Source: Amoebophrya sp. A120
Lineage: Eukaryota > Protista > Dinoflagellata
Assembly (NCBI GenBank): GCA_905178155.1
Contig: CAJINV010000005.1
Coordinates: 3,713,253 to 3,777,252, forward strand
Reading direction: 5' to 3'
Length of the DNA: 64,000 bases
Position 1 is the stretch's first letter. The number at the start of each line of letters is the position of its first letter. Positions 6,001 to 34,352 of this stretch are shown one piece after another. The notes beneath the pieces were generated by a model. It was not told the origin of the DNA. It did no database searches and was given only the letters and a program-made list of their open reading frames with translations. A program made the translations under genes and the position numbers.

Positions 6001-9000
6001 GAAGCTGACAATGTTGAACGTCAGGGAGCCGATGTGACAAGGCCTGGTGAAGTGCGGCGGCAAATACGCTTTTGCCGTTTCGAAGACCCAGATGACGACG
6101 AAATTCGCAATCACAAACGTCGCCAAATAGCTCGCCTTTTCCGGTAAGAAATGCACTGCGGAATGAAAAATCTGCGGATTCGCATGCGGATCCACCAACC
6201 CCTCGACGTCTTCCGGCATCGGATCTGCAACTGTGACGATTCTCCGCGGTAACCCGTACAACAGTAGTAGTACATACAATAAAGCCACGACGATTGCGCA
6301 GAGCGTCCCAATCAAGTAAAACACCGCCTGCGACGCGAGCCGCTCCACCGAACCGAGTTGCCACATGTATGGATTGTAAAACTGTCTGGGTCTGGAAACT
6401 TGTGATGCCGGGTGGCGTATCATGAAGAGGCCACAAATGCTGGCTCAGCATGACAAGCTTTTGACCTTCTAGGTGTTGCCTACTCTGCATGACAAACTGC
6501 GTTTCTGCATGACAGCAAAAGGGGGATCTTGGGTAACGTGCGTGACAGATTTAAGAGTCATGCCAGACAAGCATGACAAATCTGGCAATCTTCCAGACCA
6601 AGACGTATTTGCATTTGATAACATGTTCAAGACGACAATACAACCGGAGCTGGTCCAGGGAATCCCGATGGACTGGTGGTCTCCCAAAACCTGAGAATGA
6701 ATCTCCCAGGTCGCGCACAAAGCCGTGAAAACGGTGATAGCGAGCGGTAACTTTGTGCCTTCCGACACATTCTGCAGCCAATGTGGGATAAATCGCTGGC
6801 TGCCTCGCTCGTGCCGCCAGGACGTAACGGAAGTTGTGTAGCTTGGTCCAGGAGCTCCAACATTTTTGTTCTTCCCGTGGTCCGAAGAAGCAGTACCACC
6901 ACCAGCCCCGCTTCCACCAGAATTTGGGTTTATTTTATCTTTCGCTCTCATCTGTTTCACGAGCTGCTGCACTGTGATTTTCGGTCTTTTCAGCAAGAGA
7001 CCACTACTTGATGCAAAGTAGCTGCTCTGTCTCGTTCGCCGTCCTGGCGCGGTTGTCGTAGTTCCGTTCATCTTGTTCCGTCTTTTGTCACAGCAGCTAC
7101 TGCAGCCGCGAAAGGAGAGCGAGTTTTGCGACGGTGCGGCCTCGGCCAGGACGAGTAAGGCTTTGGACTTCAGCAAATGGTTTTCCAAGTGTAGATCGTG
7201 CAACTCCTCGTCGTCCATCATTTTCTGTTCAATTTCCTCGTGATCGTCATCCTCCGGATCGACAAGTTTGCCCCGGATTGAGGAAGCGGTGGACTGGTGC
7301 GCCGGAAATAAATTCACCAAAGAAGAAGTCGGATGTGACAAATGGTGTGCCGTAGTCGGCGCACTGAGGACTTCTTGCATCGTGTTTTGACTGTTTGTTC
7401 CAGTTGTTAACGTTACCCCAGGCTGCACGAGCTGCGGGACTTCTAGCGCATGTGACGTTCCAAGTAGAGCACTGGCATCGGGGGCAATACTAGTGGCGAG
7501 ATGACGTCGCGTTGGTGTTGCAGAGTTGATGCTTTCAACGTAATTTGTTCCATATTGGCGTTGGACATTCGTGTTCTCGCCAGGAGAGCTGGCGGCGTTT
7601 GGTCGATAGTTTCCTGATAATTCAGTGGCCTGCTCTTTCGACGAAAAAATAAGCGCGGAAGGCGCTGGAGATGAGCCCGGCATATTTTCCAAGACTGTTG
7701 CTTTGCCCGTCTCGGCTCTCAAAGGAACGAGGGGCGGCTGCAAGTTCGATGCAAGAACTACAGGGGCGGAGAGAAGTCCGGGACCACCTGCTATACCTTC
7801 GCCAATCGTTGCGGCTGGCGCTTGGTAGCCCTGCTTGTTTTCTTCTCCACCGTTACGCCATCGTAACGGTGGCGTCCCGTTCCTTTCACATCCTGCTTCG
7901 TGATCATGATGTGAAACCCCTACTTCGGGTTCGTCTTTTCGCGATGAAGAAGACCGCACCAGTGGGGTTGACCGTAGAATGCTATCAGCTACCACGGAAT
8001 TTTCACTGTCGATCAATCCGAGGACTGCGAGGTGGGACTCATCGACGTTTCGTGCAGGTTCGATTCCCCCTTCGTACTGCGGGCCCGATGAAGATCCGCC
8101 TTCAATAAAAAGCTCGCCGCGGCAGCTTTTGAGCTCAGGTTGAAGTAGCCCAGAGCCAGCAGATCTCGTCCCCTTTTCTTTCTCTGCCGATGCCGAAAGA
8201 ACTTCTGGTTCTGTCCCCGACCTACTATCATACTCTTGAAACGTAAAGGCGCGACACATCGGGTCCTGTGCAGGGCTGCGCGTGCTTTGTTCGATGGCTG
8301 AGCTCTCATTTCCACGGCGCTGAGGTTGTTCCGCCGAATCAAGAGGCTTACTACCTCCTCGCTTGTCTCCGACATATTGTCCGGCCGAATTCCGACCAGG
8401 GGCAGCTTCATCTCCGGAAGGACTCAGAGAGAAGTTAGTCTGCTTTTGCTGCCGTTCCTGTGATCTAGTTTCTGATGCAAAGGAGGGTCCTCTGGACCTT
8501 CGGGGGTGAGGACCACCCGCCAGTTGTCTGCGAAACCGGTCCATGGAAGCCGCAGCGGCAGCATCGCCCTGCAGCCCGAATCCGGGCAACGACGTCATTT
8601 GCTGCGACTGCGTCGTTCCCCCGCTGCTGTTGAATAGGGAATCCGAGAGCCGCGGCCGGGATTTCTGGGCGTCGTTATAGTCATAGATGGACACTGTGTT
8701 CCGGTTTTCGTCTTCGTATTCATCGTTGTGGTCGCTCTGAAGATCCTGAACAACAGACGACTCCCGGGAAAGCGTGCTGCCCTTGCGGGAAGTAGATGAA
8801 AATTTAAACCTCACTCCGCTGGATGCGGTTCCACCCCCTGCGACGTTCTTCATCCGATCAAGCGTGCGTTGGTTATGTTGCGGCGTCGTGCTAGCACTAA
8901 TTGGCATTAGGTTTCCGGTCGCGGTGTCAAGCTCCTGCTCCCCGTAGTCGGCGTTGTTCACGACACCGCGGCGACGCGGCCCAGTGCTGTCGCCGCGATA

Positions 9001-12000
9001 TAGGCCTGAACGCCGACGCGCCGGCAAACCGACGAGAGAGCCAGTCCTATCGCGCCGACCTCTCATCCTGCTCAGGTGGCTGCTTGTATTGACGTTCGTA
9101 CTTGCTGGGTTATTACATTCCGCGCTGTCCACTCGAATAAGGCGTGATGTTGAGCTTGTTTCTGGACCAGCAGCACGCCGGTCATGATCATCGGTGTCTA
9201 AAATATCCAACTCAAACGACACATTTCTGCTGTTTTCTCTCGACGAGTAGGAAAAATTTTCGCCGTGGATCAGTTGCAATGGCAACAAATCTCCTTGTTC
9301 CATGTTTGTTTGGTCCTGATTATGATTCAGATTATCAGCGTCAGAGTCACTATAATTATCGGAGTCAACGTCATTGATTCCGTCCGAATGCGAATGCGAC
9401 GATCCCATGTTGCGGTCCTGGTCTGTGCTATCGACATGAAGGTCGCCTTATGAAATGTAAAAATGTCTGGGTCTGGGAGAATGCAAGTTTGTCATGCTTG
9501 TCTGGCATGACTCGGGAGTCTGTGTTGCATAGGCACGAAAAAGCCTTCTTACCTGTCACGCAAAAACGCAGTTTGCCATGCGGAATACGTAAGACATGGC
9601 AGCCAAAAAATTTGTCATGCATAGCTGCGTATTGCAGTGCGTCTATCATTCACTTTTAGCATTACAAGTTTCCAGACCCAGACATTTTTACATTTGATAC
9701 GCCTTCTCCTTCAAGACACACTCCACCGCCACCACGCTGAGTTCTTGTCCTATTCGTCGGGGTGTCAGGCGGCAAGGAAGACATGTCCACTTTCCCTACT
9801 ATCTTTCTACTGGTGTAGTTATCCGCAGCACTTCGGCGGCGCTGGACAGAACGGGAAGAAGTAGATGGTGCCACGGGGCCGGTTCCGGAGGATATATTTG
9901 AAGCACATAATTTCATCGCCGCAGCTGCAGCACCACCTCCACCTGACCTTGAGCTTTTGGACGAGCTGCAAAAATTTTGCAGGTTGTAAACACTTCGTTG
10001 ATTTTCATCCTGAGGTGGACCTCCGCCATCGTCGTCGTGGAATCTTGTTCGGTGGTGGTACACGCGGTCCTGAATGTTTGATTTGGAACTCGTCCGGGAA
10101 CCGCGAGTTAAAAATGTCGCTGACGTTTTGCCTTTCTGATAATTATTCTGGTGATCATGTTGTTCTTGAGACGAAGTGGTGTGCAGCGCCGGGGGCTTCG
10201 TATTAGCGCCTGCTTCCTGTTGATGGTGCGTAGAAGTAGATCCTCGTGACGCCGACCCACTTCTTGTTTTCAGAAGTGCACCGGTAATTGGATCGAACTG
10301 GTGGGCGACGGGGGCTCCTGACGGAACAATACCCGGAACAACTGCTCCCCCTTCGATGGACGTGGTCGCTCTCTGCCGTCGAATTATATCACCAACCTTC
10401 CGACGCGCTTTGCTGCTCCGCGAGGTCCGTTGCTGGCCGATCACTGCTCCGTACCCTACGGCGGAAGTGCTACTGCTAGCTGCTCCGCCCCCAATATTGA
10501 TCGTCGCTCTTGATCGTACCGGAGCGGGAGGAGCTCCTCTTGAGCCAGAATAAAGGCCGCCCTGGTGTGAATGATTTATGTGATCCTGCCTGCTGGTAGT
10601 GCTTTTCGGCAGCTTTTCCCTGGGTGACGGCTCGAACAAAGCCCCCAAGCCCGTCGAGCTGTGTGCCCCTTGAGAATTCTGCGGCCGCTTGATCTGCGAC
10701 AGAGCGAGCTGCCGTGTGTAGTGCCGTGGAATGGATAAGCAGTTTCGAAACAGTGCCTCCTGGTGGTCCACCTGTTCTCGCTCGCTAAAATACTGCGCAG
10801 GATCCGGCTGATGTGCAGGAGCTACAGGAACTGTTACTCCTGCGGCGCGATCCGTTGGACTGGCCAGGAAAAGAACAGGAGCTGCAGGTGTAGTAGAATT
10901 GTTTACACTGGTGACTCCGGCGGCTGCAGCCGTTTCTTGCTGTAGTAGTTGCGACGATTGAGCTCCTCCGGGACCAAGCTGCACACAACTTCCGCCAACA
11001 TTCGATGCGCTGAGCCGAGCCGCCGGGGCAGGTGGCCTACTGCTACTGCCCGAATAGGAATACGCAGCCCCGACCGCAGATGTTTCTTCCCCTGGCGCGG
11101 AGAGCTGCTTCTGCGTGGCTGCACCGGTGCAACCAACTTCTTCTGGCGGCGGCACCGGGGGCGCCGCAAGTCCGGAAATTGGTTGGTCCTCCGGTCCCCC
11201 TGTAGCTCGCAGCACCGACCTCTCCGCGGTTTTCGATCTCGGGGGGAAGGACACAGACGTTCCCTCCACGATTGGCACATTGCCTGAAGTCCTGCTCGTC
11301 CGCCGAGCTGGTGGCAGCTGTGCCAGAGGTGCCGCGCTGCCACTTGCAGCCCCGCCACCACCTCCGGGGCGACTGGTGGTTGTTGACGTTGATGTGTAGA
11401 ACAAATTCCCTGGCCCCGTGCTACTTGTCGCACCGCCTCCCGCTGTGATTGTTGTAGCCCGGAGATCATTGCTTTCATCATGACCCTTTGCACTACGAGC
11501 AGCTCCCGGCGCGGCGGCGCCGCGGGCCCCCGCATACTGGTTCTGCGGGCTGTGCTGTTGAAGATCATTTTTCCTATTCCCGCTTCTCTCTCCTGTTCTA
11601 ATAGATGATGAATTCGGGTCGTCAACAAGAACGACCGCACCTGTGCTAGCTGCTCCAGCTCCGTTTCTGCCGGGAATAGAGCTGCCCCTTCCACCGAGGC
11701 CGCCGCTGCCACTGCTCTCGAAGGCAGCACTGTTGTTCCAGCGCTGCCGTGCCAAGTCATCCTCTTGTGTTACCGAACGCCCACGCTGGCTAATATTCTG
11801 TGGCGCACCTCCAACAGCGTAGAAGGTCTGCGCTGCAGCTTGTGAAGATGAATCTAGCGACGATGCGGCGACTTGCTTCTCACCTCGAGGATGTTGGCCT
11901 CTACCAGTGCGTTCGACGTCGGAGTCGAAAGTTGCAGCCTCGTCTTGACCTCCGGCAGGCCCGGCCCTGGATGTTCCACTAAAAATCGGCTCGCTCTTAC

Positions 12001-12112
12001 TGGTGCTGCCGGTTCCTTGCCGCTGCTGGTCGCCCACATCTTGATGCTGGTCCGGTAAATTTCGAAAACTCGAAGTGAAATCGCGAGTAGAAGGCTGCTG
12101 GAAAGAACTCAT
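1..12112 (-). CDS. Very large (>3,800 aa, 3'-partial) low-complexity protein with a central multi-TM module resembling ALMT/FUSC (aromatic acid exporter) transporters; exons ~12112-9700, 9443-6621, 6362-5899, 5769-<1
   Basis: ORFs 9662-12112, 6469-9408 and 5881-6423 join in frame after removing two TIR elements (EGEG|DLHVD; VLNM|WQLG) and a GT-AG intron at 5770-5898. The same frame appears open from 5769 to the window edge (no stop-terminated ORF is listed in it; spot-checked only). TM segments PWTSSGCIVVL..GSV..LIGTL, GSLTFNIV and RRPLAVIAAI..LLP resemble the ALMT/FUSC pattern; the family call is tentative. Confidence 0.7.
6368..6620. mobile_element. TIR introner, family A (TATCAAATGTAAAAATGTCTGGGTCTGGAA), 5-bp direct repeat ACATG
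   Basis: ~30-bp imperfect TIRs; ACATG at 6363-6367 and 6621-6625; removing 258 nt restores the frame; interior closely similar to 33741-33998. Confidence 0.92.
9449..9699. mobile_element. TIR introner, family A, inverted relative to the 6368 and 33741 copies; direct repeat CGCCT
   Basis: TIRs tatgaaatgtaaaaatgtctgggtctgg / ccagacccagacatttttacatttgata; CGCCT at 9444-9448 and 9700-9704; removing 256 nt fuses the 816-aa and 979-aa ORFs; a GC-AG reading is possible. Confidence 0.93.
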
Positions 12113-13391
12113 GTAGGGTTAATGGGTATAGAAGGGGAAGAACTTTATCTAAGAGATGAATTTTGTCCGTGAGTACTAAAGGGCTCTACTTCATCGGGGA
12201 ACTTCTATCAATATCTTTCTACCAAGTCAGAAGTGACAACATAAATTTAACTGTTTCGTAATTTATTGGGGTACGAGGAAAGTTGTGCCTCGAATAGTGA
12301 TCTATCAAAGTAGCACTTGGCGACCTCGTCCTGTAGTTGTGTAGATGATCATGACTCCATTCTTTTGCTCGCAAAGTTGTCTCATGCTTCTGATCCGAAG
12401 ATCAGAAGCAACCACTGGATACATATAGCAGAGAATCGTAAAAAAAAGACAAACGAAATTGAAAGCAGGGATCTGCGCTGGTCCTGTGATCACCTGGTGC
12501 TGATCGCAAGGACAGCATAAATAGATCCTCCGGGGGCGACGTGATCTTGAGGATATCGGGGACCTTCATGACCAAAAAAACAAAAGGAAATCGAACTCGT
12601 GTGGCATTTCAAAGCCGGATCTTCCACCAGGAGGGTCTTCCCTGGTCTGGAGGGACGGAAAGAACATCCAAGCGTAAGCAGAAACAAAAGCGTTTCTTTC
12701 CTCCAAGAACTTGCGGAACTTTTACCGTTGTAGATCCATCTAGGAAGAAGATTGAATCGAAAAACTGCAGCGATGAACAGATGCTCCGTGAGCAGGCCAC
12801 AACCGCGGCTCGAGGGACGCGCTGTCGGTTCCCGCGATGCGGATACGTCCACTCGCACCACGCAAACGCAAGCTGCTCGCTGCATGCGCCAAAAGATCTT
12901 TTTTTTTCTCGTTTACAATGCGCTTCATTGCTTTATTTCTTTTGTTCACATTTCTTTCTACTTATTTTCGCACGATTTTTGTTTCTGTGCGGCTGTGATG
13001 ATGCTAAATTGTACAGAAACTCGATGAAGGCTACATTTTCTTTTCTTTTGTAATTTATTCCTTCTGTTTTTGAAACTTCTTCAGTTCTTTTTTCATCAAC
13101 AGCAACAGGGCGCGTTTGCTGCCCCCTCGAAACGGAAACCTCTTGTTGCTTTTGCGTACCAAGATCATTCAGTTCGTATTCTGCGCGCAAACAGTCATGT
13201 GGCGCAAGGAGATAAAAATGACTTGAAATAAACTAGACTCGACTTAGGCATGCTCCTATTGTAGGAAGCAGTAGCTGACGCTGCGGTGGAGAAGGCAATC
13301 ATCTTCTTCGTGGGGAACGACGTTGATCTCGACCGTCTCACTCCCTGTTCCAGTAACAAGTAACTTGTTCCCTGTTCAAACAAGTCCTCTT

Positions 13392-16300
13392 CTATTGGAT
13401 GAAGCACATTCTGAGCCCGATCACGTGGCCCGCGAGCGCAATCGGAAGGGAGACCAAGGGGAACCACTCATAGGGCGGGAAGAAAAAAAACACTGCTGCA
13501 GGTTCGTTTTGGAAGAGTCGCAATCTGAACATGATTTATTCTTTCGCGCATAACTTTGATAATTTTCATTCAAGTATTTCATCTCTACCATTGCAGGATT
13601 CCATCACTTACAGTAGTTGACGTTGAGCACAATAGTATTCCACCAAACGAGGCACTTGAAATTCAAATTCGAATTCACGGCACAATAAGCATATCCGAGG
13701 AGTGACGATTTGTGAATCTTCTCCAACAAAAATTCGCAAAATATACGGTGTCGGCAGCGAGAACAGGATCGTGAAAATGACCGAAAAGAGTAACAGCAGC
13801 CCGATTACATTGAAGACAAACAGCACCACTTTCTGCTTGATGTGAAGCTGCGGAGCGATTGTTGATGCAGGTGATATTAGTGGCGCAGAATTTCTTTCCG
13901 GACTGCCAGTGACGTCCTCATCGCCGAAGAAAAATGAGGTCAGCGGTCTAGTAGTGCTTGCTTTATTTTTTCCCCCAGCACTCCCCAGTCCAAGCGCTGA
14001 CAAAATGGTAGTTCCTGCTGTAGAAACGAGAGACGAAATACTTGCAATTACGTCATGATCTGCTTCGCCGTTCTTGGTTGATGATGATGTTGTTGTGCCC
14101 CTGTCTGAGTAGAAGAAGAAGGAGTTCTGATTGGGATTGTGACAGGAAGACGCTGTGGTCGATACCACGTCATCCACGTCAGTTTGCGGATTTTCCTCTT
14201 CTTTCCGAGGGGATTTCTCGTCATCTGAGGAGCTACTCGACGTGGGGCCCATGTTTAAGCTCACCTGGAAGAAGTAGGAAATCGAAATGTTACTGATACC
14301 TAGTAAGTTGCGTTTTTCAAAAGGATGTCAACATCTCCATGTATTTCTCTACCTATATGGATATCTCCTGCCCGTCAGCATGAAAATGACCACAAGAGCG
14401 AAAGAAGTGAATTGTATTTGTATATCAGCTTGGCTCTACAACATTCACAATCGATACCGCGAAGGCGAGAATTCCGGTGATGATGTCAAAATTGTGTCCG
14501 TGGACCGTCATTTGCTGCGGAACAACCCCCTGATTGTGCCCGACGTGCAGCAAATACTCCAAAAACACCCGGAACACCTGGTAGCCCACGATCAAACTGG
14601 CGGGCACTTTCCGCGCAATCTGCTCGCCCCAGAACGAAAACCCAAAGAAGAAGACAATCGCGAGGCAGCCGAAAAACAGGAGCACAATGAAGACCGCGGG
14701 GAACGAGAGAAAGCAGGAGGTCAGAGCGTGGGTGAGCAGGAGCCAGGCTGCGATGCACCTGTTTAGTTGTTTCGAAAAAAGGTCATCTTGTGCCGGTTGG
14801 GGTTGTCACGTAGGGCCAATTAGTCTTGTTCAACAACAAGCAGTGAGCTCATCTTCATCATCTTCATGGTAGTTCATTTACTGGGCAAGGTGATGAAATT
14901 GAAATTGTAATTGTGATGAAACATGTATTTTGCATTTACTCATCCTACCAGTGCAGCGGGCGCTTGACTGTTTCGTCTGTGGCCCCCATGTGGCAGATGG
15001 ACACAAACGCGTAGACCGACACCGCAAACACGACGAGCATCGCCGCCATGTAGGCCCCGGAGGGTTCCGGCACGTGCGTTCCCGGAAACAGGGTGACCAC
15101 CCGTTTCGGCGGTACCTTCTCGCTGTTGAAATCCGGGAAGAAGTTGTTGACTTCCGCCTTGGGCTTGTCCTCCAGGATGATCGTCTGCTCGACCCGGTGC
15201 TTCTCGAGATTGCCGGGCACTTCCAGTGTCAGCGCCGGCGTGTGCGGATCTTCGTGGACCTCCACCCGGCCGAAGGCCTGGGGCTATTGCAAGGAAAAGT
15301 AGTCCCCCTTTCCCATATTGAAAGCGCATCCTACTGAAAATTTGCGATGCAGATTTGTGACCACAAATCGGGTCTGCCTTCCAAGAATGCACATTCAGGC
15401 TGTCGGCCACGTTATGCGGGCGATTTGTCATGCTGTAAGGCCTACAGAGTAGCCGGCTGCCATACCAAATATAGCCGCCGGGGCGGAGGTAGTGAGGTCG
15501 TGGGCGTTTTCTTGCCGGCCGTCGCCTTGGCCGCGGCTTTGCTTTTTCTGGGCCCGCCGTACCGCCGTGAGTAACGTTAGGCCGCACGGTATGGCGGCCG
15601 CTTGATAAACGTCGCAAATTTTCGCAAATTCCCGATATTCCTTTCCGAAAGCCAGCCCCCATGCTATGAGGCCGATCCGGGTGCCACGGGGGGCGCCCAA
15701 AAAGCGAAGAAAAATCGGGCCCGTAGCATGCGGATTGGCTTTGCGCGTCTGGCGCGCTTTTGCTTTTTTGCGTTTTTATTTTTCCCGTCGGCGCTTTTTG
15801 CAAAGCCCCCCAGGCTCTGAAACCGGCGAAAATGCGGCCGCTTTCGCGGCCGCCCAAAATGCTCCGAAACCGCGGCCGTGCCATGCTGTTTCGCTGTTCT
15901 GATTTTGGGTGCGTTGTTTTCGGGCGCCCTTTTGGGCGTCCTAAACCGCCAGAAATCAAGGCGGCGGGCGCCCCAGAAGGGCGCCCCTTTTGCTGGCTTC
16001 TCTGCGTCGTTTTACCCAGCGGCGATCGATAGAATCCGCTGGCGATTCGGTGCCAGGTAAGCCAAACAGGCTTGCACGCTGGGATCTTTTTCATGCAAAA
16101 AAACTCTCTACAGGCTTCAAAACTGCCGGTCGTTTTTCAGGGGAGATGGCAAAAAAACTCCCCGGTTAGAACCGTTCGGTGACCTCACTACATACTAGGC
16201 GCCTAGTATACCAAAAGGCCCCCGCCAAAGCCAGGACCACGCATTCCTCGTCTAGCTGCAACACAAGTTTGATTTGTCTATCCAAATCCAGCATCAGAAG

Positions 16301-16756
16301 TTTCGTTTTGATATGGGGAGGGTGGATTTTTCCTTTTGATAGGGGCCCGAAGTCCACCAGGGAAGGCGGATTCAAAATGCTGGAGAAGACGTTGGAAATC
16401 TTGGTGCCAATGGCTACTTCACCGCCTGTTTCCGTTTCCTCGGCGAGGACCACAGAAGCGGGAGCTTCATTTGAAGTTGTGCTTTCTCTCGCAGCTGCCA
16501 ATGATGCTTCTTCTTTAGCCGTGGTTTTCATCTCTGCCAAGGAGGACGCCGCTCCTGCTGCTCCTGCTGTAGTACCTGCTCGTACTCCCCCGGTAGTCGC
16601 ATGAGCACTGGTCGACGCCCCGCCCAGGCTCAGAAAGGCTGACGCCTGAGACGAGTCGCTGCCAGAGCCGCCCATTTGCAGCATGATGTCAAACGGAGCC
16701 AGATCCGCTGCCGTTGACCCGCCCAGCAGGCCGACTACCTCCTGCATTTTTACCAT
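13392..16756 (-). CDS. Multi-exon polytopic membrane protein resembling a bacterial-type hypothetical membrane family, with low-complexity N-terminal extension
   Basis: Exons ~16756-16314, 15278-~14949, ~14758-14440, 14264-~13700, ~13480-13392. Motifs LIVGYQVFRVFLEYLLH, PQQMTVHGHNFDIITG, FNVIGLLLL..SLPTP, PYEWFP..ALAGHVI. The last junction is unresolved. Confidence 0.7.
15284..16313. mobile_element. Degenerate introner (ends TATTG.../...TTTGATA, direct repeat TGGGG) enlarged by a nested ~732-bp repeat
   Basis: TGGGG at 15279-15283 and 16314-16318; removing 1035 nt joins IHPP|QAFGRVEV in frame; motif TTTGTCATGC near 15424. Confidence 0.65.
15463..16194 (-). mobile_element. Non-autonomous Helitron2/Helentron-like repeat, copy 1
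   Basis: Collinear with 31558-32297; 11-bp asymmetric inverted repeat GTAGTGAGGTC (15489-15499) / GACCTCACTAC (16181-16191); hairpin CCGCC-GG-GGCGG (15475-15486) outside the IR; no TSD seen. Confidence 0.7.
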
Positions 16757-19271
16757 GGCGGCAGATTACGGCACGAAGGACGCGGATGTGAGTGCTCCCG
16801 ACTTGTGTTCGATTTCTTGGCGGGAGAAAGCCGTCCAAGTAGCACGTAGTTGATGTTTCGTACGAAGCTATTTTCTGCGCCGCAGGTCTAGCTTCTCCGT
16901 ACTGCTCTTTTGTCTTTCAACAGCCAGTGGCGAGGGCGTCACTGGAAAAAATGGGGCTGTGAGCTGCGTCGCCTCGAAAAGCTGCAGTCGGGCGGCCTTA
17001 TGCCGGTTTTGCACATTTTCGCTGTTGCGGGGGGCGGAGCGATACCGTGCGTAGATGCCTCCGCGGGGCACTAGCACTGATCACTTGGGCGTTTCTAGTT
17101 ACGATGGCGCAAAAGGAGCTGCTGTGCGAGAACGAGTTGAGGGAAGTTCATCTTCCATTTCATCTAAGCAGCATTGCGGCGTCGGGAAAAACAATACCGG
17201 TGGAAAGTGAGCTCAAACACCGCGGTGAAGAGCCAAAAACTACAAGGGAGCGGAACGACGTTTGGCCGCTCTCTTTCAGGTGCCGCAGACACGCACTCTG
17301 GGCCGAAGCCAATTACTTAGCGTTACTAGTAGAAAGAGCACATCAAGAAAGCGTCAGCGTATCGCGGGCCGCATGGCTGTACAAACTCAAAGAACGAGCA
17401 CGAAGGTGGAGGCAACAAGAACACCGTCGAGCGTGCGAGAAGAACACTGTCGCCGACGATGGTGGCGCGCGCATGAGTAGATGCGTTTTCTCGTGTGTAT
17501 GCGGGGGCGCTTTGCATACCTTATCGCCTGACTTGGGCCGGGCGGATTCTTGCAACAAGGCTAGCAGGAAGGACCGGGCGACCGGCAGGGCCGCTAGCTT
17601 TCTTATGCTTGAGGGCGGCGGGGCCCAAAGGACTAGACCGACGCCGACGAACCCGGCGCCCCTTCTCGACACAACCACGCCCAACCACCACTGTTGCGTA
17701 TGGGTGTGGGGCGGGTCGGCGTGACGATTCGCACCAAACGAATCTACTTATCAATCGAGCGAAGTGCGCCGCGGGTGGCCACGATGGAAACAGGCGAGGG
17801 CGGGGCGGCATGCTCGCCTCGCGGGCCAACGAGCGGGCCCACCAGCTGCCCCCCCCACCAAGCCGGCCGAGCGGGGGCGCAAAAAAAACGCGCCCGGCCC
17901 GCCTGCGAGCCTCCCTCACCCCCCGGCAATGTGCCGGCGGCGGGCGCGGGCGGGCCGTGCGCGGGTGGCCCACGCGCTGGCTTCGTGGCCGTCCAAGCAG
18001 GCGAACCATGGAGGCGGGGCCCCCCGCCTTCAAGCGCTTCCGGTCTGATGCCGTCGCGGTGGATGCCACAGCGGCGCCCCGCTCATATTCTTCTCGCCTG
18101 CCGGCGGTCGCGCTGGTCCTACGCTTCTCCTTTGCTTCGCGCAGGATGGCGGCACGTGGCCGCGCCCCAGCCGCCGCATCGGCACCCGCCGGCCGCTCCT
18201 GGCCCCCCCGACCTTCGCAAGGAGGCGCGGCGCCTGCCCGTCCTCGCTCTGGCAACAGACGCAAAGCACAACGATGCCCGGGCTTTGCGCCACGCCGGGG
18301 CGATTATAGTGATGCCGACCCCGATAACTCATACCGCAGCGAGCGGGCCTGCGGGCAAAAAACCACGCGCCAGGGCGCGGGACCGGCCGCGGGCGCCATG
18401 CCTGGCAATCTCGCCGAGACTTCCGCCTTGCGCTGCGCCTGGCCTCCAGAAACTGGACGCCGCCCTGGAGAAAGTCGCACGGGGTGCCCGCCTGCCTTCC
18501 TGCGCTGTCTCCGCCCCGAAGCGGCTGCCCTTTCGCATGTACGGGCAAAGATAGCCAGCCGATGCGTCATCGTTCCGCAGTCTCTGGGCCTCCTGGTTCG
18601 CCCAGATAAGCGCCACCGCCAGCCCACGCGCGGCCCGAACGTGCTGGCGCGCGCGCCACTGCGGAGGGGCAGAAGTCGCTATCACAAAGAAACAGGCCCC
18701 CGGAAGGAGAAGACACGCAACAAGAAACAACGGCACCGGCACCGCTTCAACTGAACCAAGTCTTGCACTGAACACCGTCGCAGCAGCGTCACGGCCTTTT
18801 CTCCGTCTTGAAATGACTCAAGCACTCGTCTTGCATATCACGCACGAAGGCAATCCAATCGTGGGCTAATGTGAAGTCCAAACTATTTTCGATAAACAAC
18901 TTCTTCTGACGACATTTCATCGCCCGCGGTCACGGCAGTGATGCTGTAGCGATATTAGATGTGGCTAGCGCCTGAAACGTAAAATCGTACATTGATTTCA
19001 GACGTGGCGGAAATGCTTTTTGGCAAGAAAACAGACACATTTGAGCATACATCTAGTTCGAGGGTAATATGACGCAAGAACGTATAGCACACCGCACGAA
19101 GCTGCAGTACATGTTGAGTGCGGCACCATATGCGGACGAGCTGTAACAAGTGGGCACAAGTAGGATCGTATCATCAAACAGAAACATCTACGTCTGGATA
19201 TCTTTCAAACACCAGGGACACCCGAACCAGGCCACACACCAGCATAGTCATTGTCATTTTCATCAGCCATC

Positions 19272-21927
19272 TTACAACAAATCTCCGTATCCAATATTCA
19301 TCGTATCAACGGTCCTCTTTGCCTGCGTCATATTTGGTTTTGCTTTTGGCTTCGCTTTTGGTGGTGCCGACGGCGCTCCTCCAGCTTTGTTCCCACCTGC
19401 ACTTTTACCAGAACTAACACCCGTAGTTGCTTTGCTCCCACTGATGCTTCCCATCTGCAAAGTCATGCTGTCCAAAGCTGCACTGCTCAACTCCTCCTGC
19501 TCGAAGTGATGACCGAAAGCACCAGCAGCTCCAGGGCCTTTTCGTCCGGCGACCACCGTTCTGCCACTTACCGCACTACTAGTACTACCTGTTTTCGCTT
19601 TCGCCTTCGGCGGCCCACCGCGGGGCCCTCCTCCTCCTCCTGCCAGTTGCTTTTGATTTTGTCGCGCCGCCTCTTCTTGCGCTTTTTCCTCCGCGCACTC
19701 CCCACACAAGGCTTTGCCCGGACCCGCGACCGACTCGTCCAAGGTCTGGTAGGCTTTTCCCTTCAAAGGCTTCTCGCACTCGCTGCACTTGAAGCACAAG
19801 GGGTGCCAGGTTTGCCCCGCCGCGGTCATAACTGTGCCCTGGATCTTCTCCTTGCAGCCGAAACACGTTTTCCCGAACAGCTGCAGGTGGCAGCCCTCGC
19901 AATAGAGGTTCTGTTTCTCCGTAAAGTAGCGGACACCGACCTGAGAGTGGAGGTGTGATGATGGACATGCGAGACGCGTTCGTAATATGCGAGAAAGCAA
20001 TAAACCTGCAAAATTCATCTAACTCATCGCAAACTCGCATCTACTCTGAGATGATGACAGTCACATTATAGACTTGTGTTTATTTTCTGAAACATAAACA
20101 ACATGACAGAGCCGCTTCATGCGCGACGTCATTGTGGTCGTCCTCTCCAGTATCCAACAGAAAGTCTTCGTACATACGTCTCTATACCAGATTCCTTTCG
20201 CATTCGCTGCAGGTGAAGCACTCCTTGTGCCATTTCAGATTTCCCTGCTCAATCACTGCGCCGCCGTGAATTGGCTCTTTGCACTTCGCACACGTCCCCA
20301 ACTTGCCCCACTGGGTCTGCACTTTCGGCTCCCTGTTAGTATTCCCGGGTCCACCACCTCGCTGCACGGTAGTAGAACCCCCGGGCGTAGTGATGGTCTT
20401 CCCCATCCCGCGCTTGCTATTTACATTGTCGTGCAACACGAGCGGTCCGCTCGCGATGCGTTTCTGCAGCAAGGCCGTGTCCTCCACTGGAAAAGCCGCG
20501 TTCGCGAAGTTCAGCGCGCAACAGTAGCCGAAGGTTTTGTGCAGGGTGATTGCGATGCCTGCAAAAAAATATGCCGGGTCGAAAATGCCTAACCGGTGTC
20601 CGCGGGAAGGGACACCATCGTCCACGATTAGGTCCTCGATCATCGCGTAGCCAGATTCCGGCAACGTTCCGTACCACAAGCACTCCCCGACTTTGTAGCG
20701 CCAGTTGGAGTACCGAGTGATCCGATCCTGCACTTTCGTGATTTTGTCTGAAGAGGTGTGCGACGCCAGTCCGGTAACACCGAGGTCGGCCGCGTGGTCG
20801 CTGGCGGAAAGAAAAAGCGTCGGATGCGGCAAAATCTGGCCTTGGTGGGGGTTTATTAAGACTGTGGACGAGGTTGATGAGGAAGCAGGCGATGATGTTT
20901 TTGGCTCGCCAGGTTTCATCATTCTTGCGACCAAGATCCCCTGCTCTTGGTCCCAGGTGCAGCTACTGTGGAGTTGTTGCATTTCCGCAAATTGAGAGAC
21001 TACCTCATCTGGCGGAGGCGGGATAATTCCGGTTCCATTCACGCCCTCCTCCGCTTCCGGAGCCGCACACATCTCCGACCCCGCGCGACCCCGATTTGCT
21101 GTTCCTACAGATGTTGACCCCGACTTGATGTTTCCACCTCCACCCGCCAAGTTCTGGCAATACTGAATCGCTTCCACGACGACCGCTTCGCCCTCTTTCG
21201 TCACCACACACCGACCGGCGCGCCCCACCGTCGGGTGGAAATCTTTTCCTTTGAACTTTCCGACTCTTCTCTGTTTCAACCGGTCGGCGGCGAGCTGCGG
21301 ATTGCGCCGCAGCTGGTTCAGGGCGTAGAGAACCTCAATCTCCAGGAGAACTATGGCCAGCTTTTCCAAGGCTTGCCCGAGCGGGTTCATGTCTTCTCGT
21401 TTCACAGCCGCGGCGCTCTTCTTGCTCCTTGTTGGTTGGGAAATGGAACTTCCGATGAAGATTTCCCAATCGAAGCGAGATAGCAGAGGTTGTTCTACTG
21501 GGCCGGACACTTCATCTTCGCCTAGGCGGTCGGTCTCAGAGGTGTCACTTGTTGCAGTAGCACTGTTGATGCCGACGTCTCGATCATGGTTATTTCCTGT
21601 TCTGGCCGGGATTTTAGTTCTCAAAAAGTCGTCGACCAAAACCGGAAGTTGCCCGAGGGCCGTCTCTTCTGTCTGCGTTAGTCGGGTGCTGAGTCTCAAG
21701 TGTGATGTGCTTGCAGACGAAGAATTGCTGGCAAGTTCCTCTAAAACTCGGTCGGCTAGACTCGCCTGCCGAGCGACCAGGTCGCGCGAATCAGAGACGA
21801 AGGCTGAAAGGAGCTTCAGATCGATCTTCTCATCGGCAGAAAAAGGACGGTCGTCTACTTTAGCCTGCTGTGCCACGCGGCGCCAAAAAAAATCGCATAT
21901 GAGCTCCATCGTCGGAACTAGCTGCAC
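19272..21927 (-). CDS. CAP (SCP/PR-1-like) domain protein with two C-terminal LIM domains; start uncertain
   Basis: CAP motifs (LNQLRRNP, SASDHAADLG..SH, GECLWYG, LIVDDGVPSRGHR); LIM CxxC..WHKECFTCSEC joined by a GT-AG intron to YCEGCH..CFGC..WHPLCFKCSEC..LCGEC. Confidence 0.88.
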
Positions 21928-22428
21928 TAAAACAGCAGGCCAACGCCAAACGCCAATAAATTAGACCTCCTCCGTGGCATCTTGATCTTCATGACTTTGC
22001 CTCGGGTAATATCAAGCAAGGGCTGGTTGTCTCTCTGAGTCTGGCTCGAAGACACCGATCATTATACAGTCTGCGCAGCATTATATTCATTGTGCAGAAG
22101 AGATTTCGGATACCAGAGGGGAAAAAGTTGATGGACCTGAAATGAAACATAAAAGCGCAGATGAGAGGACCACGCAGGACGAGCTCCTGGTCTTCTACGA
22201 AGCAGTATGAGCCTTTCAGCTGCACTGGCGAGTAGAAGTTTTACCAACCTCGGCAAAAGACCTGCAATAGCGTGCTGAAACTCTGGTCGGAAGCGCTGTC
22301 ACTCTAGGTTGCTGCTGTAATCTCTAATGCTGATGCAAGTTGCGGTATCTACAAACTGCATCCACTTTATTAGATACTGCTTCTTGAAACAAGGAAAAAA
22401 CAGAAGGCGGCAAGTAAGTAGTCTCGAG

Positions 22429-23986: not shown

Positions 23987-27546
<3,560 letters not shown>

Positions 27547-28257: not shown

Positions 28258-30888
28258 TCAAAGCTGCCTCCATTCCCGCACCACCTGTTGCGCGCGCAAC
28301 ACAAACACCTGCCAAAACGGGCTGGGTTTCCACGGCCGCCCCTCGGGAAAGGGCAGCCAGACCCTATCAAATGTAAAAATGTCTGGGTCTGGAAGATTGG
28401 AACTTGTCATGCTAAATCTGAATCAGGCAAAAAACTGTGTTGCATGAGTGGCAAAAGTTGTGCACTTTTGACCTAATCGCATCGTATCGTTTTGACATTT
28501 GACTCCTGTCAGGGTGGCGTTAGAACAGATTTAGCCTAATCGAGAGACAGTTTCTCATGCAGGATAGGCATGATAGAGCGCTCACAGAATCTGTCATGCG
28601 ATGTCCTACATGCCAGACCTCATGAGTCCTGGAAAACCTGCATGACACGTTTGGCATTCTTCCAGACCCAGACATTTTTACATTTGATAGACTCCGAGCG
28701 CGTGCAAAACCCCGAAAAAGCCGCCGAGCCCGTTGCAGTTGCCGTCTGTGCGGTCGGCCACGTAGCCGCCCGTGAATTTGTAGCATTTGCCGCGCCGTGC
28801 ATGGAAAAAGTGTCGCACTGGTAGACGTAGACGCTGCATTGCAAATTTTTGTAGAGGAGCGATGGAATTTGCATAGTGATATATGCTAAATCAGGACGAA
28901 AGCCAGATCTGTCATGCTGTCCCGCAATTCATTTCAGTGCGTTGAGCACGATACTTTTCCAGTGGATACGTCCGCGTGGAAGCTCATGCTGAGGACTTGG
29001 ACCGGCGTGAGCACGCGTTTGTGCGGGTTTGGCTTTAGCAATGTGTAAGAACTTCTGCGGCTGGAGATCGAGACAAGAGACGCGGCAGTACCAGTACCAG
29101 CATCAGTGTGGCTAAAAAGGCGGTCGTTTGTGACGGATACTGCCGGCGCCAGTGGCACGGAATCTTCCTGTTGTCCAGTGTTTGGTACTCCGCTTGCTCT
29201 GCCTGGTAACTCTAGCGGCCCTGCTTGGTACATATCTCCGCGAGAGAAAAACCACACGCGGTCCGGCTGAATATGAGAGCGCACAACTACTTTGCCCTGT
29301 AATTTATAAAATGAACAGCAATGCTGGACATCTCGGTAAGTCAAGAGTGGAAGTGGAAGTGGTACTGCTTTTGCATGACAAACCCACACAGAATCGCCGT
29401 GCTGCATCGGCTGCCGGACGAAGATGAACAATCTGTCATGCATACCCATACTTAGTACTGAGAAATCGGAAACAACAGAGTCCTTTTTTTTTTGGGCAAG
29501 ATGAGATGAGCCAGGGCAAGTTCTCGTGCACTCTCATACTCCAGAGGGTCTATTTGGAACCCGAAAAAATTCCCCCGCAGGTACGGAAACGTTTTCCGCA
29601 CTTGGAAACTGGAAAACGCGTCGACAAACTCCTTCTTGCTGAGCGGCCCCACCACGGGAAAAACGAAGCGAAAGTCCTCTGCGAGCAGACTCGGCTCCAG
29701 TGTGCCGAACTCCGCACGCAGAATGGCCTGCGTCAACGCGATCAGTTTCTCTCCGTTGTTCCGCACGTCTACTACTTCAGGCGGGTTGAAGTTTAGCGGG
29801 ATACTTGTAGTGGTTGCTGGTAAAACATCAGCAGGGGACGACGAGTTTGTCGTCGTGAAAGCCGCTGATCTAGTGTGTACGAGAGTTTCCGCCTCGTCCA
29901 GTACCTGGGGCAGGCCGTTTCCGAGCGCACCCTCGGAATTCTGGCGGTATTTCAGCAGCCCCGCATGGACTCCTTCCAGGTGCGGCAGGATGGCGCAGGG
30001 AAAGTTATGGGTGTGGAATCTTGAGAAGGCACAAACCGACGCAAAAGTCACGGTACTCGTGCTGGAAGATTGTATTGGTCGTATGGAGGACAACAGTCAG
30101 TGCGCAGGAGCATGTTGCGGACTATCTACAGATACAGACTTCACGAAGGTAACATCGAGAGAATGTCGTACTAACTTCTTCTACTGTAACCTCGCCCCAG
30201 TGCTTGGACGCTAAAATTTTGTCCTGTAGTTGAATAACAAGACAGCGCTTCGCATCGACATCGACAATTGCAACATACAACAACTTCACACTCCTGTGTT
30301 TGTACAGCTCAAGATCCCCTTCCGATAAGCCTGCGTCGCCAGGTCCTCGACTTTCGCCCCAAAAACGAAGGAGATGAACCGGGAAAGGAAATCCGTTGCG
30401 AGCAGCACTATCACAGGAAAAAAGTGTTACAGTTACACATTTGTTGGAGTTTCTGCATCACAAACCTGCTCGACATGGCAAACAAAACCTGTGCTGCGCA
30501 AACTATATTAAGGGAAAACACGAATGAAATGAGGTTGGCAAGCATTTCCTGCATGACAGAGCTTGTCTGTCTTGCTTGTCTCCCATCAGAGTGTGTAACT
30601 GTAACACTTTTTTCTCACGATAAGCACGCAGTCCGACGTAATGCCCCCGGTCAGAAGGACGCAGCTTGCCAATGCGTGACCCGTGCAACGACGGGAGAAG
30701 GAGAGGGCTTTCCTGATGTATGTGGTATGATATTTGTTTTATGAACGTCGTGAATTCGTCACAATCAAGCACAAGCTTACAACGTGCTAATATGACATCG
30801 AGTCCGAAATCCTAATCCTGCCGCGGGGTGGAAAAAATAAAAAAAAGAGTCATGATGCAGGAAAAAGTCACCTACCAGACCTCCGTCA
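28258..30888 (-). CDS. Conserved algal-type hypothetical protein, possibly NTF2/SnoaL-like fold; 7 predicted exons
   Basis: Reconstructed: MTEVWKALSF..; LLAEDFRFVFPVVGPLSKKEF..FQIDPLE|PDRVWFFSRG..QVLSMSFHAD|GKCYKFTGGYVADRTDGNCNGLGGFFGVLHALGV|WLPFPEGRPWKPS. All junctions keep the frame. Confidence 0.75.
28365..28689. mobile_element. TIR introner, family A ends with a different interior; direct repeat GACCC/GACTC
   Basis: Perfect ~31-bp TIRs TATCAAATGTAAAAATGTCTGGGTCTGGAAG; removing 330 nt gives ALGV|WLPFPE. Confidence 0.92.
28796..28968. mobile_element. Degenerate TIR introner
   Basis: IR TGGAAAAAGTGTCG / CGATACTTTTCCA; internal CTGTCATGC; removing 178 nt gives SFHAD|GKCYKF. Confidence 0.6.
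29272..29538. mobile_element. TIR introner, family B (TATGAGAGYGCAC); direct repeat CTGAA/CTCCA
   Basis: TIR tatgagagcgcac / gtgcactctcata; removing 272 nt gives DPLE|PDRVWFF. Confidence 0.85.
30017..30316. mobile_element. IR-bounded intron (old introner?), possible GA-AG splice at 30020-30316
   Basis: IR ATCTTGAGAAGGCACAAAC / GTTTGTACAGCTCAAGAT; removing 297 nt keeps the frame (YRKG|FHTHNF); no direct repeat left. Confidence 0.5.
30409..30622. mobile_element. TIR introner, family C (TATC....GAAAAAAGTGTTACAGTTACACA); direct repeat AGCAC
   Basis: ~35-bp TIRs; perfect AGCAC at 30404-30408 and 30623-30627; removing 219 nt keeps the frame (DCVL|LATDF). Confidence 0.9.
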
Positions 30889-31557
30889 TGGTACAGCGGA
30901 CCGCACCTCCAGCTGCCACGCAAGAGCGATACTCCCACTCCTTGACTGAATAACCTCCTTTCTGTTCACGTCAATCCCGCACCAAGCACGTCGGAGGCGA
31001 ACACGGAGTGGAAGTGCTGCTCATCTTCATCTTCTTGAAATCGAATTTACGAGAGTTCCAGAGCATACGGGATCTCATGATACTCAACATGTTGACTCAT
31101 GTGCCTACAAAAGGGCAGCTCCGCTCACACCCATCCAGTAAGTAGTTGTTCGGCGTCTCATCAATCGCTCAAATTCGCTTGTGCAGCTCTTTCGTAAATA
31201 TGGATCGTCCGGTTCAGATCGTCCTCTACAACAGAGCTGAAGCTGGCAGCTGTTCCGGCCCCCCGTGGCCGTGAAACACAATTTGGAAGTTCGACTCGTC
31301 GCGTAATCGTTCCAACTTACTCTTTTTGGTGGGGTGTCAAATCGACGGAGAACAACAAGAGCAACAGATTTGTAATTCGCTTTTCTTTTAAGTACTCGAA
31401 GTCGAACTACAAAATTTGAATTGAGAAGCAGTGCCATTCCATTGCAAAGCATGGCACTACGACACGATATTTATTCGGCATTTTTCGATGGAAAAGAACG
31501 GAATCCGAGGCCATCTTCGCTATCAATCTGGAAACATAGAATAACAAGAAACCAACG

Positions 31558-32297
31558 TACCAAATATAGCCGCCGCGGCGGAGGTAGTGAGGTCGGTGGC
31601 GCTTTCTTGCCTCCACCCTGGCCGCGGACCGGCAGGGGGTCTGCTTTTTGTGGGCTCTCCATGCCGCCGTGGGTAAGGTTATGCCGCACGGCATGGCGGC
31701 CGGTTGAAAAACATGACGCACTTTTGGCAAATTTCCGAAATTCCTTACCGAAAGCCAGCCCCGACGCTATGGGCCCGATCCGGGCGCCACGGGGGGCGCC
31801 CAAAAACCAAAGAAAAATCGGGCCCATAAGATGCAGACTGGCTTCGCGCGTCCGGCGCGCTTTGTCTTTTTTGCGTGTTTATTTTTCGCGCCGGCGCTTT
31901 TTGCAAAGCTTGTCCCGATTAGAAAACGCCGAAAAGGCGGCCGCTTTCGCGGCCGCCCAAAATGCTCCCAAATCGAGGCCGCGCCATGCGGTTTCGCTGT
32001 TCTGGCTTTGGGCGCGTTTTTTCTGGGCGCCCTTTTGGGCGCCCCAAATCGACAGAATCTCACGCGGCTGGCGCCTCAGAAGGGTGCCCCTTTTGCCGGC
32101 TCCCCTGCGTCGTTTTATCAATCGGCGACCGATAGAATCCGCAGGCGATTCGTTGAAGACAAAGCCAAACAGGCTGGCACGCTTTGACTTTTTTCATGCG
32201 GAAAAACGCAGAACAGCATTACAGACTGCCGGTCGTTTTTGCCGGGACATGTCAAGAAAACTGCCAGGTTGGAGCCGTTCGGTGACCTCACTACATA
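31558..32297 (-). mobile_element. Non-autonomous Helitron2/Helentron-like repeat, copy 2 (intergenic)
   Basis: Collinear with 15463-16194; IR at 31584-31594 / 32284-32294; hairpin CCGCC-GC-GGCGG at 31570-31581; T-rich 5' flank on the minus strand. Confidence 0.7.
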
Positions 32298-32482
32298 AAA
32301 TCATGATCATCCGCTGCCTTATTCATCATATCCCCGGGTATTTGCATTAGCATTTGGGACGGGCTAGTTGTCGTTTCCCTCGCCGTTTCCTTGTCGTCTC
32401 CCTTGCCGCCTTGTTGTCGGTTCTGGGTAGCGCCACCCTTGTCTTTCCCAGAGTTTTGTAACAATTAAACCACCTAGCTAGG

Positions 32483-32660
32483 GTATCCGAGTTAGTTGTC
32501 CGTTCGGACGACTAACTCGGAATTTGCCGCGGGCGGCCTTTTCCCTCGGGCATCGCGGAGGTCCAAACATGCCAACAGCCCACAAGGCAAAGGCTTCCCG
32601 CGTGGTCAAATTCCGAGTTAGTCGCCCGCCCGCACGGGCAGGCAATTTCATCGGATATAC
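32483..32660. repeat. Foldback mini-element with three copies of CCGAGTTAGT(C/T)G
   Basis: Hairpin 32487-32520 (15/16-bp stem); 32505-32526 is also a 21/22 inverted match to 32607-32628. Confidence 0.75.
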
Positions 32661-32663
32661 TGG

Positions 32664-34352
32664 TTAGTAGTTGGTCCAATTGTTACTCTCTTCTCGTTCT
32701 GCACGTGTTAGCGGACGCGGCGTTCTCCACCAAACCACCTGGTGCCCAGCGACGACATTCGGATTCGATGGGCTCCCGCTTGTGGGCACCCGCGCAGCGC
32801 TTTCATCTGATCCCACGACATTGACACGATCGTCATCGAAATCATGCTCGATGTCTTGGATCTGACTGTTTGGGTCCTCCGTCGCCTCGCCCTCCTCCTC
32901 GGGCCTCGGATTACGGCCACGACACAAACGGCTAAGCATTCCACGACCAGGAACATAGTCCCTCCATCCTCTAGCGGTCGTGAACGTAGTTTCTAGCATG
33001 CTTGCTGTGGTTGCACCGGCCAAACCGGCAGTGCCGTTGCTCGTGCCGCCATCGCGCTCTTCGAAGAGCTGCTTTTCGTGCTGCGGTCGGCCGTGGTGCC
33101 CCTCCTCCTGCGGGTCCTTGCGCGTACTGTTGTACACGTACACCACAACCTCGGCCGGGGTCAGTTTGGCATCCCCATTCGCATCCACCCCGCGCGGCGG
33201 GGCCGGACACTCCGTTTTATCCAGCACATGGTTCTTGTCCGTGTCCAGCGCGCTGAACTCCGCGATTATCTCGGCGACGATGGACTCCAGCTCCGCGAAC
33301 ATCCCGGAAGTGCTACTTTCCGCCGCAGCCACTGATCCGGCAGGAAGACCAAACAACGGGATCGAGTCAACCAGCTGCCGCATCATCAGGCGAGTCAAGT
33401 CTTTGGACACCTGATACGAATGGTTTTTAATTTGGATTTTTCAATGTGAAGTTTCACGTTACAAACACAAACAGGCTTAATAGATCAGGCTTGAATTTAC
33501 AGTTAGTTTATTGCTGCTGTCACTTGACCACCCCAACTGCAGTTCCTCCTCCTACAACGAACGCAAGAACATCTTTTTATTTATTTAGGTTCTTACAACT
33601 TCTAAGAGTAGAACTCGTCGCCTATTATACCCGATCAATGTTGTCCATTTCCAATTTCGCGTTCAGTTCGAAAAATTCCGCGCGGACGCGTTGGCGGACC
33701 GCGTCGTCCAGTCGGTCCTGCGCCTTCAAGCGGGTACCCTTATCAAATGCAAAAGTGTCTGGGTCTGGAAACTTGTGATGCTGGGGGGCGTCTCATAATG
33801 AGGCCACAAGTGCTGGCTCAGCATGACAAGTTTCTGAGCTTCTAGGTGTTGCCTATTCTGCATGACAAAGACAAACTGCGTTTCTGCATCACAGAAAAAT
33901 GGAGCTCTTGGGTAACGTGCATGACAGATTTAAGAGTCATGCCAGAGAAGCATGACAAACATGCATTCTTCCAGACCCAGACATTTTTACATTTGATAAC
34001 CCTCGTTGAGGAGCAACATGTTCGTCAACGTCGCCAGCTCGGTGTCTTCCTCCTTCGCAACCCCAACCGTCGTTGTCTCCTCCAAAAAAGACGTGCTTGA
34101 GAAGGGGTTCGTGTCAGTGGAAGGCACGGGAGAAAAGGAAGCGGTAGTGGAGGTTGCGGTTGGGTCGTTTTGGTCTTCGAGTTCGTACGTTTGCTTCAGC
34201 TGCGCTATGGAATGGAAAGCTGTTGCTGCACGACCTTTCGTGCCATACCCATATGCGGGAAAAAAAAAGCTTCGTGGTTGTGGAGATGCCGTTACCTTGT
34301 TCCGCGACAAAGAGGCAAGGAGAAGGTAGAGAAAAAGAGCAGTTGAGAGCAT
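32664..34352 (-). CDS. EF-hand-containing hypothetical protein, possibly secreted; start uncertain
   Basis: EF-hand-like loops DTDKNHVLDKTE and DANGDAKLTPAE; exons joined across a family A element (LNEG|TRLKAQD) and a probable GT-AG intron (IDR|VSKDL); hydrophobic MLSTALFLYLLLA start. Confidence 0.6.
33741..33998. mobile_element. TIR introner, family A; direct repeat ACCCT
   Basis: 30-bp TIRs; ACCCT at 33736-33740 and 33999-34003; interior alignable to 6368-6620; removing 263 nt gives an open frame. Confidence 0.93.

Follow-up and report, generated by a model that had tools for sequence, protein, structure and literature searches.

Introner elements and the locus studied

The introner elements of Amoebophrya sp. 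A120 carry an inverted repeat with the motif TAT, seven bases and three or more A, measure about 240 bases, are flanked by direct repeats of 3-5 bases and have variable splice ends, while the sections of that study available to us leave the splicing mechanism of the non-canonical introns open (PMC7789003). In Polarella glacialis, introners derived from DNA transposons create introns in both orientations (classes 1, 2, 3, 6, 7, 8 and 10 in the part of the preprint consulted), and two-way introners of Aureococcus are cited there as well (bioRxiv 2020.10.14.339549). Here, we analyzed a 64,000-nucleotide stretch of Amoebophrya sp. A120 (contig CAJINV010000005.1, positions 3,713,253 to 3,777,252; hereafter the window), in which four copies (E1 to E4) of a short element with terminal inverted repeats (TIRs) were located. 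On balance, these copies probably belong to an abundant non-coding element of an Amoebophrya-like dinoflagellate, removed by a relaxed spliceosome that would cut one base before and four bases after the predicted terminal hairpin.

Anatomy of the copies in the window

6368-6620, minus strand: E1, a 253-bp TIR element in the common orientation, with the duplication ACATG at 6363-6367 and 6621-6625
9449-9699, plus strand: E2, 251 bp, sister subfamily, reversed relative to its minus-strand host, with CGCCT at 9444-9448 and 9700-9704
28365-28689, no strand assigned: E3, 325 bp, with the TIR of E1, E2 and E4, a different interior and the duplication GACCC/GACTC
33741-33998, minus strand: E4, 258 bp, common orientation, with the duplication ACCCT at 33736-33740 and 33999-34003

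An earlier note on this DNA had placed one and the same element, in both orientations, at 6368-6620, 9449-9699 and 33741-33998. These coordinates were borne out, and the alignment of the three copies agreed with the two orientations: E1 and E4 were 86% identical end to end in equal orientation, and E2 aligned to E1 and E4 solely as the reverse complement (72% and 74%). After removal of 35 bases at either end, the interior of E2 matched those of E1 and E4 with z-scores of 38 and 31 in reverse, compared with 3.7 and 2.2 forward. Calling it the same element was right for E1 and E4 and slightly overstated for E2, which represents a sister subfamily. The three listed copies were real, but the fourth copy, E3, with an interior only weakly related to the others, and the 5-bp direct repeats had been overlooked.

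Inverted ends of approximately 30 bases beginning with TAT were found at all four copies (TAT-N7-AAA), reading TAT-CAAATGT-AAAAA in E2, E3 and E4 and TAT-GGATTGT-AAAA in E1. A 5-bp direct repeat flanked every copy, exact at E1, E2 and E4 and with one mismatch at E3. Stop codons were present in all three minus frames inside each of E1, E2 and E4, and a terminal stem was predicted in the host-sense RNA fold with z-scores of -2.4 (E1), -6.8 (E2) and -7.1 (E4). Scanning the window for TAT/TAC-bounded stems with flanking repeats returned 14 candidates, compared with 3-9 in shuffled sequences; at 14 or more paired bases of 20, there were 6 candidates versus 0-2. In a DNA-like run (X3), the summed depth exceeded 100,000 at the elements versus about 45 in their flanks, a value that is not a copy number. 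With TIRs, a target site duplication (TSD) of constant length, short size, no coding capacity and many copies, the element shows the traits of a miniature inverted-repeat transposable element (MITE), and is likely a non-autonomous DNA transposon, that is, a MITE-type introner. Each of the four interiors also contained 5-8 CATG motifs, several of them as GTCATG or CATGAC, which from their sequence could possibly be subterminal transposase-binding sites.

Removal of the elements and a proposed fixed cut register

Runs X1, X2 and X10, for which only contigs were used, were taken as RNA. RNA-like contigs from three runs, all under one sample label, skipped E4 by 263 nucleotides (258+5; 33735 to 33999), and those of two runs skipped E3 by 330 (325+5). 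The contig that skips E4 also lacks two GT-AG introns and another five non-canonical stretches. No GT/GC-AG register is possible at E4 or E3, and the duplication mismatch at E3 rules out every AG-ending register on the minus strand. Similar skips were seen at other elements bounded by TAT and ATA:

31565-32297, no strand assigned: 733-bp TAT..ATA element; the joint forces a cut one base before and four bases after the stem, the 1+4 register (TT..TG)
34206-34459, no strand assigned: TAT..ATA element of another family, duplication TGCGC, skipped by 259 (254+5) in three runs
34501-34687, minus strand: GT-AG intron, G-TAT...ATA-ACAG, flanking repeats GCAGG/ACAGG
34759-34986, no strand assigned: old TAT..ATA element, its duplication fully diverged; 1+4 cut forced by the joint (GT..GG)
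35054-35226, no strand assigned: old TAT..ATA element, skipped, 1+4 compatible (CT..CG)
36694-37142, no strand assigned: old TAT..ATA element, skipped, 1+4 compatible (TT..GG)
37430-37613, no strand assigned: old TAT..ATA element, skipped, 1+4 compatible (CT..CA)
41807-42090, no strand assigned: related-TIR element, duplication TCGCG; skip deduced from the record coordinates of one RNA-like contig

The GT-AG intron at 34501-34687 likely arose from an old element that had integrated at NNAGG. At 41807-42090, 119 letters lie between the contig pieces and the frame is open. The skip 31561-32298 is located 3' of the stop codon in the E4 host gene, suggesting that elements are removed from untranslated sequence too.

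Fifteen of 35 joints were listed, and three of these were dropped (two that fell inside repeats, and one in which a side measured 27 bases and the filler was unknown). The remaining 12 joints among those listed comprised 3 GT-AG and 9 non-canonical ones. The arrangement N-TAT...ATA-NNNN, with the cut one base before and four bases after the stem, fitted eight of the nine non-canonical joints and was forced in two. Where the two copies of a duplication differ, the retained base came from the upstream copy in all 16 informative cases at positions 1-4 and from the downstream copy in both cases at position 5. Under independent uniform cuts, a shared register would arise by chance with a probability of 0.005. 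Whichever way round the element lies, the 1+4 register gives T at +2, and where the target reads NNAGG it is identical to GT-AG; a copy at such a target in another assembly (locus L069, see below) also shows the 1+4 form. In the part of PMC7789003 consulted, T occupies +2 in all nine predominant non-canonical motifs of A120 (Table S4), lending independent support to the 1+4 rule. Two other regularities were considered: that non-canonical introns all start with G was rejected, as the joints at 31560, 36687 and 37424 permit no G start, and conservation of A at -5 among canonical introns failed to hold (3/4). The rule predicts the following introns:

6364-6621, minus strand: predicted intron of E1, TT..TG
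9445-9700, minus strand: predicted intron of E2, GT..GC
E4: predicted intron TT..GG

Splicing of E2 would probably not use the available GC-AG, because the fixed geometry predicts GT..GC.

The alignment of an X1 contig at 7066-6621 breaks off at the border of E1, leaving 3 unaligned letters, and was not counted as proof. Raw-read runs X7-X9 matched repeat stretches only, with none on exons, and are uninformative on splicing here. In run X7, about 75 reads at 9670-9699 combined the TIR of E2 with an E3-like interior and another flank; the element family is present and read in the RNA sample of this run.

Orientation of copies in another assembly

A TIR-pattern search in contigs of another assembly yielded at least 156 loci, reduced to 135 elements after exclusion of duplicates, edge cases and non-TA ends; a perfect 5-bp duplication was found in 120 of these copies. 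None of the locus flanks matched the window, and viral contigs gave 0 matches to the TIR pattern. The host strand in the loci was called with a codon model trained on the window. On 3-kb tiles of the window, this model called 20 of 21 minus, with one no call, and at 600 bases it returned 52 minus, 2 plus and 52 no calls; its strand calls agreed with junction-level ones in 34 of 35 cases.

Among 34 copies of the E1/E2/E4 type, 24 were called, 20 lying as E1 and E4 and 4 reversed (binomial p 0.0015). Counted by hand among rows scoring at least 15 for strand, the ratio was 15:4; the window itself gave 2:1 (E1 and E4 vs E2). E3-like copies were unbiased (8:10, with 7 uncalled). A GT/GC-AG register was available at 8 of 89 copies on the sense strand versus 7 of 89 on the opposite strand, with 6% expected. 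The hypothesis that targets are selected for G or AG was rejected (p 0.16-0.68), and no target base preference was seen.

All four reversed copies lacked any GT/GC-AG register. One of them (L139) is 90% like E4 and sits at a target without G in a frame open for 96+98 codons, the strand of which is fixed by the Pfam domain GCP_C_terminal (E 1e-10); the downstream part matches gamma-tubulin complex component 2, and the upstream flank had no PDB match. At L069, two related copies in opposite orientation lie 171 bases apart in one frame. With their shorter frames, L048 and L080 are weaker cases than these two. Pfam searches on 69 flank frames of the loci gave one useful match and one below the cut-off. 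In the same gene as the L069 copies, a separate small hairpin-like stretch (L069:960-1020, CCATCCACATCC...GGATGTGGATGG) with GTCATGC motifs is probably another short element.

These counts bear on the view of the earlier note that any directional branch-point or pyrimidine signal is dispensable or symmetric. In its favor, both orientations occur in coding frames, and at the DNA level reversed copies without a GC-AG such as that at 9449 exist (L139 and L069). The orientation count that had been proposed, here made on the loci of another assembly, found both directions as well, but orientation is not neutral, and the 20:4 bias shows that symmetry is incomplete either in the interior or at the insertion step. 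This bias likely comes from an insertion bias or from a splicing advantage of one orientation.

Host genes and reading frames

5901-12118, minus strand: host frame of E1 and E2, 1901 codons, stop-free with element+5 removed
31417-35452, minus strand: E4 host gene; RNA-like contig layout with 8 skipped stretches, 2 GT-AG and 6 non-canonical

The insertions at 6368 and 9449 had been assigned to one gene, and indeed a single stop-free minus frame of 1901 codons spans both; a 1929-codon open frame at 1-5787 comes after it. When element+5 is removed, the minus frame opens to 806|991 codons at E2, 942|160 at E1 and 156|36 at E4. The frame is restored in both orientations, as was also claimed, though such restoration is expected for any insertion once the insertion and one target copy are removed, and alone is no proof of splicing. 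E1 carries 20 private changes when compared with 17 relatives, and despite them its host frame is without a stop, where a rough neutral expectation would be 27 stops; this gives indirect support for splicing of E1. The joined exons of the E4 host comprise 504 open codons, with one relative (P0121) at 79%. The E1/E2 host frame had no Pfam match, and a host-protein comparison among longer proteins, a weak search limited to 2000 residues, found nothing.

Proposed mechanism and alternative explanations

The anatomy of the copies, their occurrence in both orientations in coding frames, the skips of element+5 at E4 and E3 and the absence of target preference are observations that any explanation has to accommodate. 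The TIRs and the TSD point to a transposase that would insert the element in either direction, making cuts staggered by 5 bases. Owing to the mirrored ends, either transcript would then begin with N-UAU, end with AUA-NNNN and form an identical stem. A relaxed spliceosome would cut at fixed distances, the geometry being supported by the joints and the enzyme inferred. From the duplication, the mRNA would keep four bases of copy one and only the final base of copy two, and would thus be restored at any target. The element would supply U at +2, and G+1 and the final AG would be dispensable. The spliceosome is preferred mainly because the 1+4 register coincides with GT-AG at NNAGG targets. Tentatively, we go a step further and propose ruler splicing, in which G+1, the final AG and directional branch or pyrimidine signals would be ignored and the distance of one base before and four after the TAT/ATA stem measured; this could be so, although we would not put it at even chances.

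Several points weigh against spliceosomal removal at a fixed distance. That runs X1, X2 and X10, used as contigs, represent RNA is a guess. No junction for E1 or E2 was found among the joints listed, where X3 repeat joints hid any X1 joint, and no reverse copy of the E1/E2/E4 subfamily had an RNA junction. The 1+4 rule is post hoc and draws on eight joints under one sample label, the joints at E4 and 34206 permit every register, and the joint 32452-32687 (GTAA..ACAAAAC) misfits, with T at +2 kept. The stretch skipped there, 32453-32686 (GT..AC), has a terminal stem and a longer 3' overhang, and is the sole one off the 1+4 geometry. Host strands in the loci rest on the codon model, with 10 of the 34 E1/E2/E4-type copies uncalled, and at L048, L049 and L052 the frames around the junction are short or in conflict. 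The decay argument carries little weight for E2, where 2 private changes are present and a stop-free frame has a probability of 0.07. Finally, no transposase family was found among the 17 window frames scanned, and U1 was undetected in Amoebophrya A25 and A120 according to the part of PMC7789003 consulted.

The best-surviving alternative keeps both the element and the fixed geometry, and replaces the spliceosome with a structure-specific endonuclease and a ligase that would recognize the terminal stem, as proposed for the euglenids. In its favor, neither G+1 nor AG is required, the terminal stem is strong in both orientations, the undetected U1 would be no obstacle, and euglenid introns use TIR stems and exit as circles (PMC11282704, part consulted). 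On the other hand, the register exactly gives GT-AG at NNAGG, the GT-AG intron 34501-34687 has equal geometry, T at +2 is retained, the element at 36694-37142 is still skipped with almost no stem left, and nearly all spliceosomal proteins are present in Amoebophrya (PMC7789003, part consulted). We consider this explanation unlikely, albeit the most serious competitor of the spliceosome.

It is more doubtful still that reverse copies are only tolerated, being spliced poorly or in another register and purged because of a directional signal in the interior, with E2 saved by a chance GC-AG or GT. The orientation bias of 20:4 (15:4 at the higher strand score), the reverse copies without an RNA junction and the GC..AG register that exists at E2 speak in its favor. 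However, all four reversed copies in the loci lack a GT/GC-AG register and two lie in long open frames, the E3-like family is unbiased at 8:10, and Polarella classes that splice well both ways are also orientation-biased (bioRxiv 2020.10.14.339549, part consulted), which together make this explanation improbable. That the skips reflect empty alleles or precise DNA excision in the RNA-sequenced cells is very improbable: the loss of exactly element+5 equals an empty site and the E4 and E3 skips come from contigs of RNA-like runs only, but these contigs also skip GT-AG introns and contain 0 other letters in the pieces listed, a single transcript lacks six different non-canonical stretches, and the DNA-like run X3 has E1 and E2 joined to their flanks.

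Other features of the window

A 1057-bp TAT..ATA element at 15285-16341 (repeat GGGGC) encloses a 741-bp element at 15470-16210 (repeat CCAAA), which is 85% similar to 31565-32297, an element that is skipped; the pair are likely nested insertions and possibly a twintron. Two more TAT..ATA elements, from other families and each with exact 5-bp repeats, lie at 30409-30622 (AGCAC) and 43702-43921 (CAGCA), the latter joining frames of 142 and 462 codons.

Pfam matches, all on the minus strand, were a LIM domain (20182-21960), a TTLL1-like tubulin-tyrosine ligase (23987-24976), a weak leucine-rich repeat (40255-41838) and an alpha/beta hydrolase (45428-46822). The TTLL1 exon of the window grouped with dinoflagellate proteins (support 97/90) on a branch of its own, closest to a set that contains a EukProt record with the prefix of a syndinian transcriptome; no near-identical named protein was found in a search with TTLL1. 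GC-rich repetitive stretches were observed at 17300-18900 and 31700-32300, and the depth of run X3 dropped to 0-6 at 16676-20000 versus about 45 elsewhere.

Significance and comparison with known systems

The element class and its two-way insertion have already been described, and two-way insertion is expected of the class. What is new here is the lack of target selection combined with the proposed fixed 1+4 cut. Together, two-way insertion, absent target selection and one cut geometry turn the Amoebophrya splicing question into a precise prediction, namely that a symmetric end provides the U at +2 together with a stem lying 4 bases away from the 3' cut, which is testable with existing genome and RNA data. 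If true, this would explain how a transposon fills exons at no protein cost and would show how far the spliceosomal rules can be relaxed. If the ruler proposal holds, any 5-bp-target transposon with a symmetric end would make a perfect intron wherever and in whichever orientation it landed, and the 'variable, signature-free' sites of approximately 60% of Amoebophrya introns would largely follow one NT...NN rule, masked by the direct repeats.

In the literature searched, as far as the consulted parts extend, we found no orientation count or fixed register for Amoebophrya, although Figures 3, 4 and S19-S25 of PMC7789003 may show part of this, and the Fig. S23 legend ('1-5 nucleotides') may describe a related geometry. 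TIR strings of the window copies were absent from the 12 supplement files of PMC12130899 searched, out of 14.

Within the consulted parts of PMC7789003 and PMC12130899, the introners of Amoebophrya A120 and A25 resemble the copies described here in TIR motif, direct repeats, length and variable ends, and the genomes in co-oriented genes and GC content (52.3% in the window vs 51.2%). With TIRs, a direct repeat, RNA removal without GT-AG (E4 and E3) and 4 copies in 64 kb, the element has the features of the A120 introners. The A120 family fam12 (331 copies, 252-260 bp, TIR of 33 or more; PMC12130899, part consulted) is alike by size. PMC12130899 also describes an A120 family with TIRs and Copia/Gypsy-like ORFs, which may be a candidate source of a 5-base stagger. 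Whereas the consulted text of PMC7789003 treats the border as variable or unknown and uses 'orientation' for genes, here the orientations of the elements were counted and a single 1+4 register is proposed.

Polarella and Aureococcus introners share TIRs, TSDs and a bias to one orientation with our element. They create introns in either orientation, as our element may do, given that it lies both ways in open frames; RNA proof here covers the common orientation (E4) and E3 only. In Polarella class 12 (5-nt TSD) at NNAGG, the final base of the TSD supplies the 5' G, which matches the register proposed here. In contrast, the introners of both genera need G-starting donors and AG acceptors from the TSD or the element, and no such target selection was seen here (8/89 vs 7/89; bioRxiv 2020.10.14.339549, part consulted). 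The two orientations pointed out in the earlier note are real but not surprising in themselves, since two-way creation by TIR DNA transposons was already published for Polarella and, as cited there, for Aureococcus.

The nonconventional introns of euglenids are alike in having a stem at a fixed distance from the junction, TSD-like repeats, no GT-AG and no pyrimidine tract. Their pairing involves CAG/CTG at +4..6/-8..-6, compared with TAT/ATA at +2..4/-7..-5 here, and the lineages are unrelated (PMC11282704, part consulted). Micromonas introner elements are likewise repeated introns at new gene positions. They are reported as sense only, as the earlier note rightly held in its contrast with sense-only introners, and reverse splicing has been proposed for them (PMC3879977, part consulted), whereas the element described here occurs in both orientations (E2, L139, L069) and carries TIRs and TSDs.

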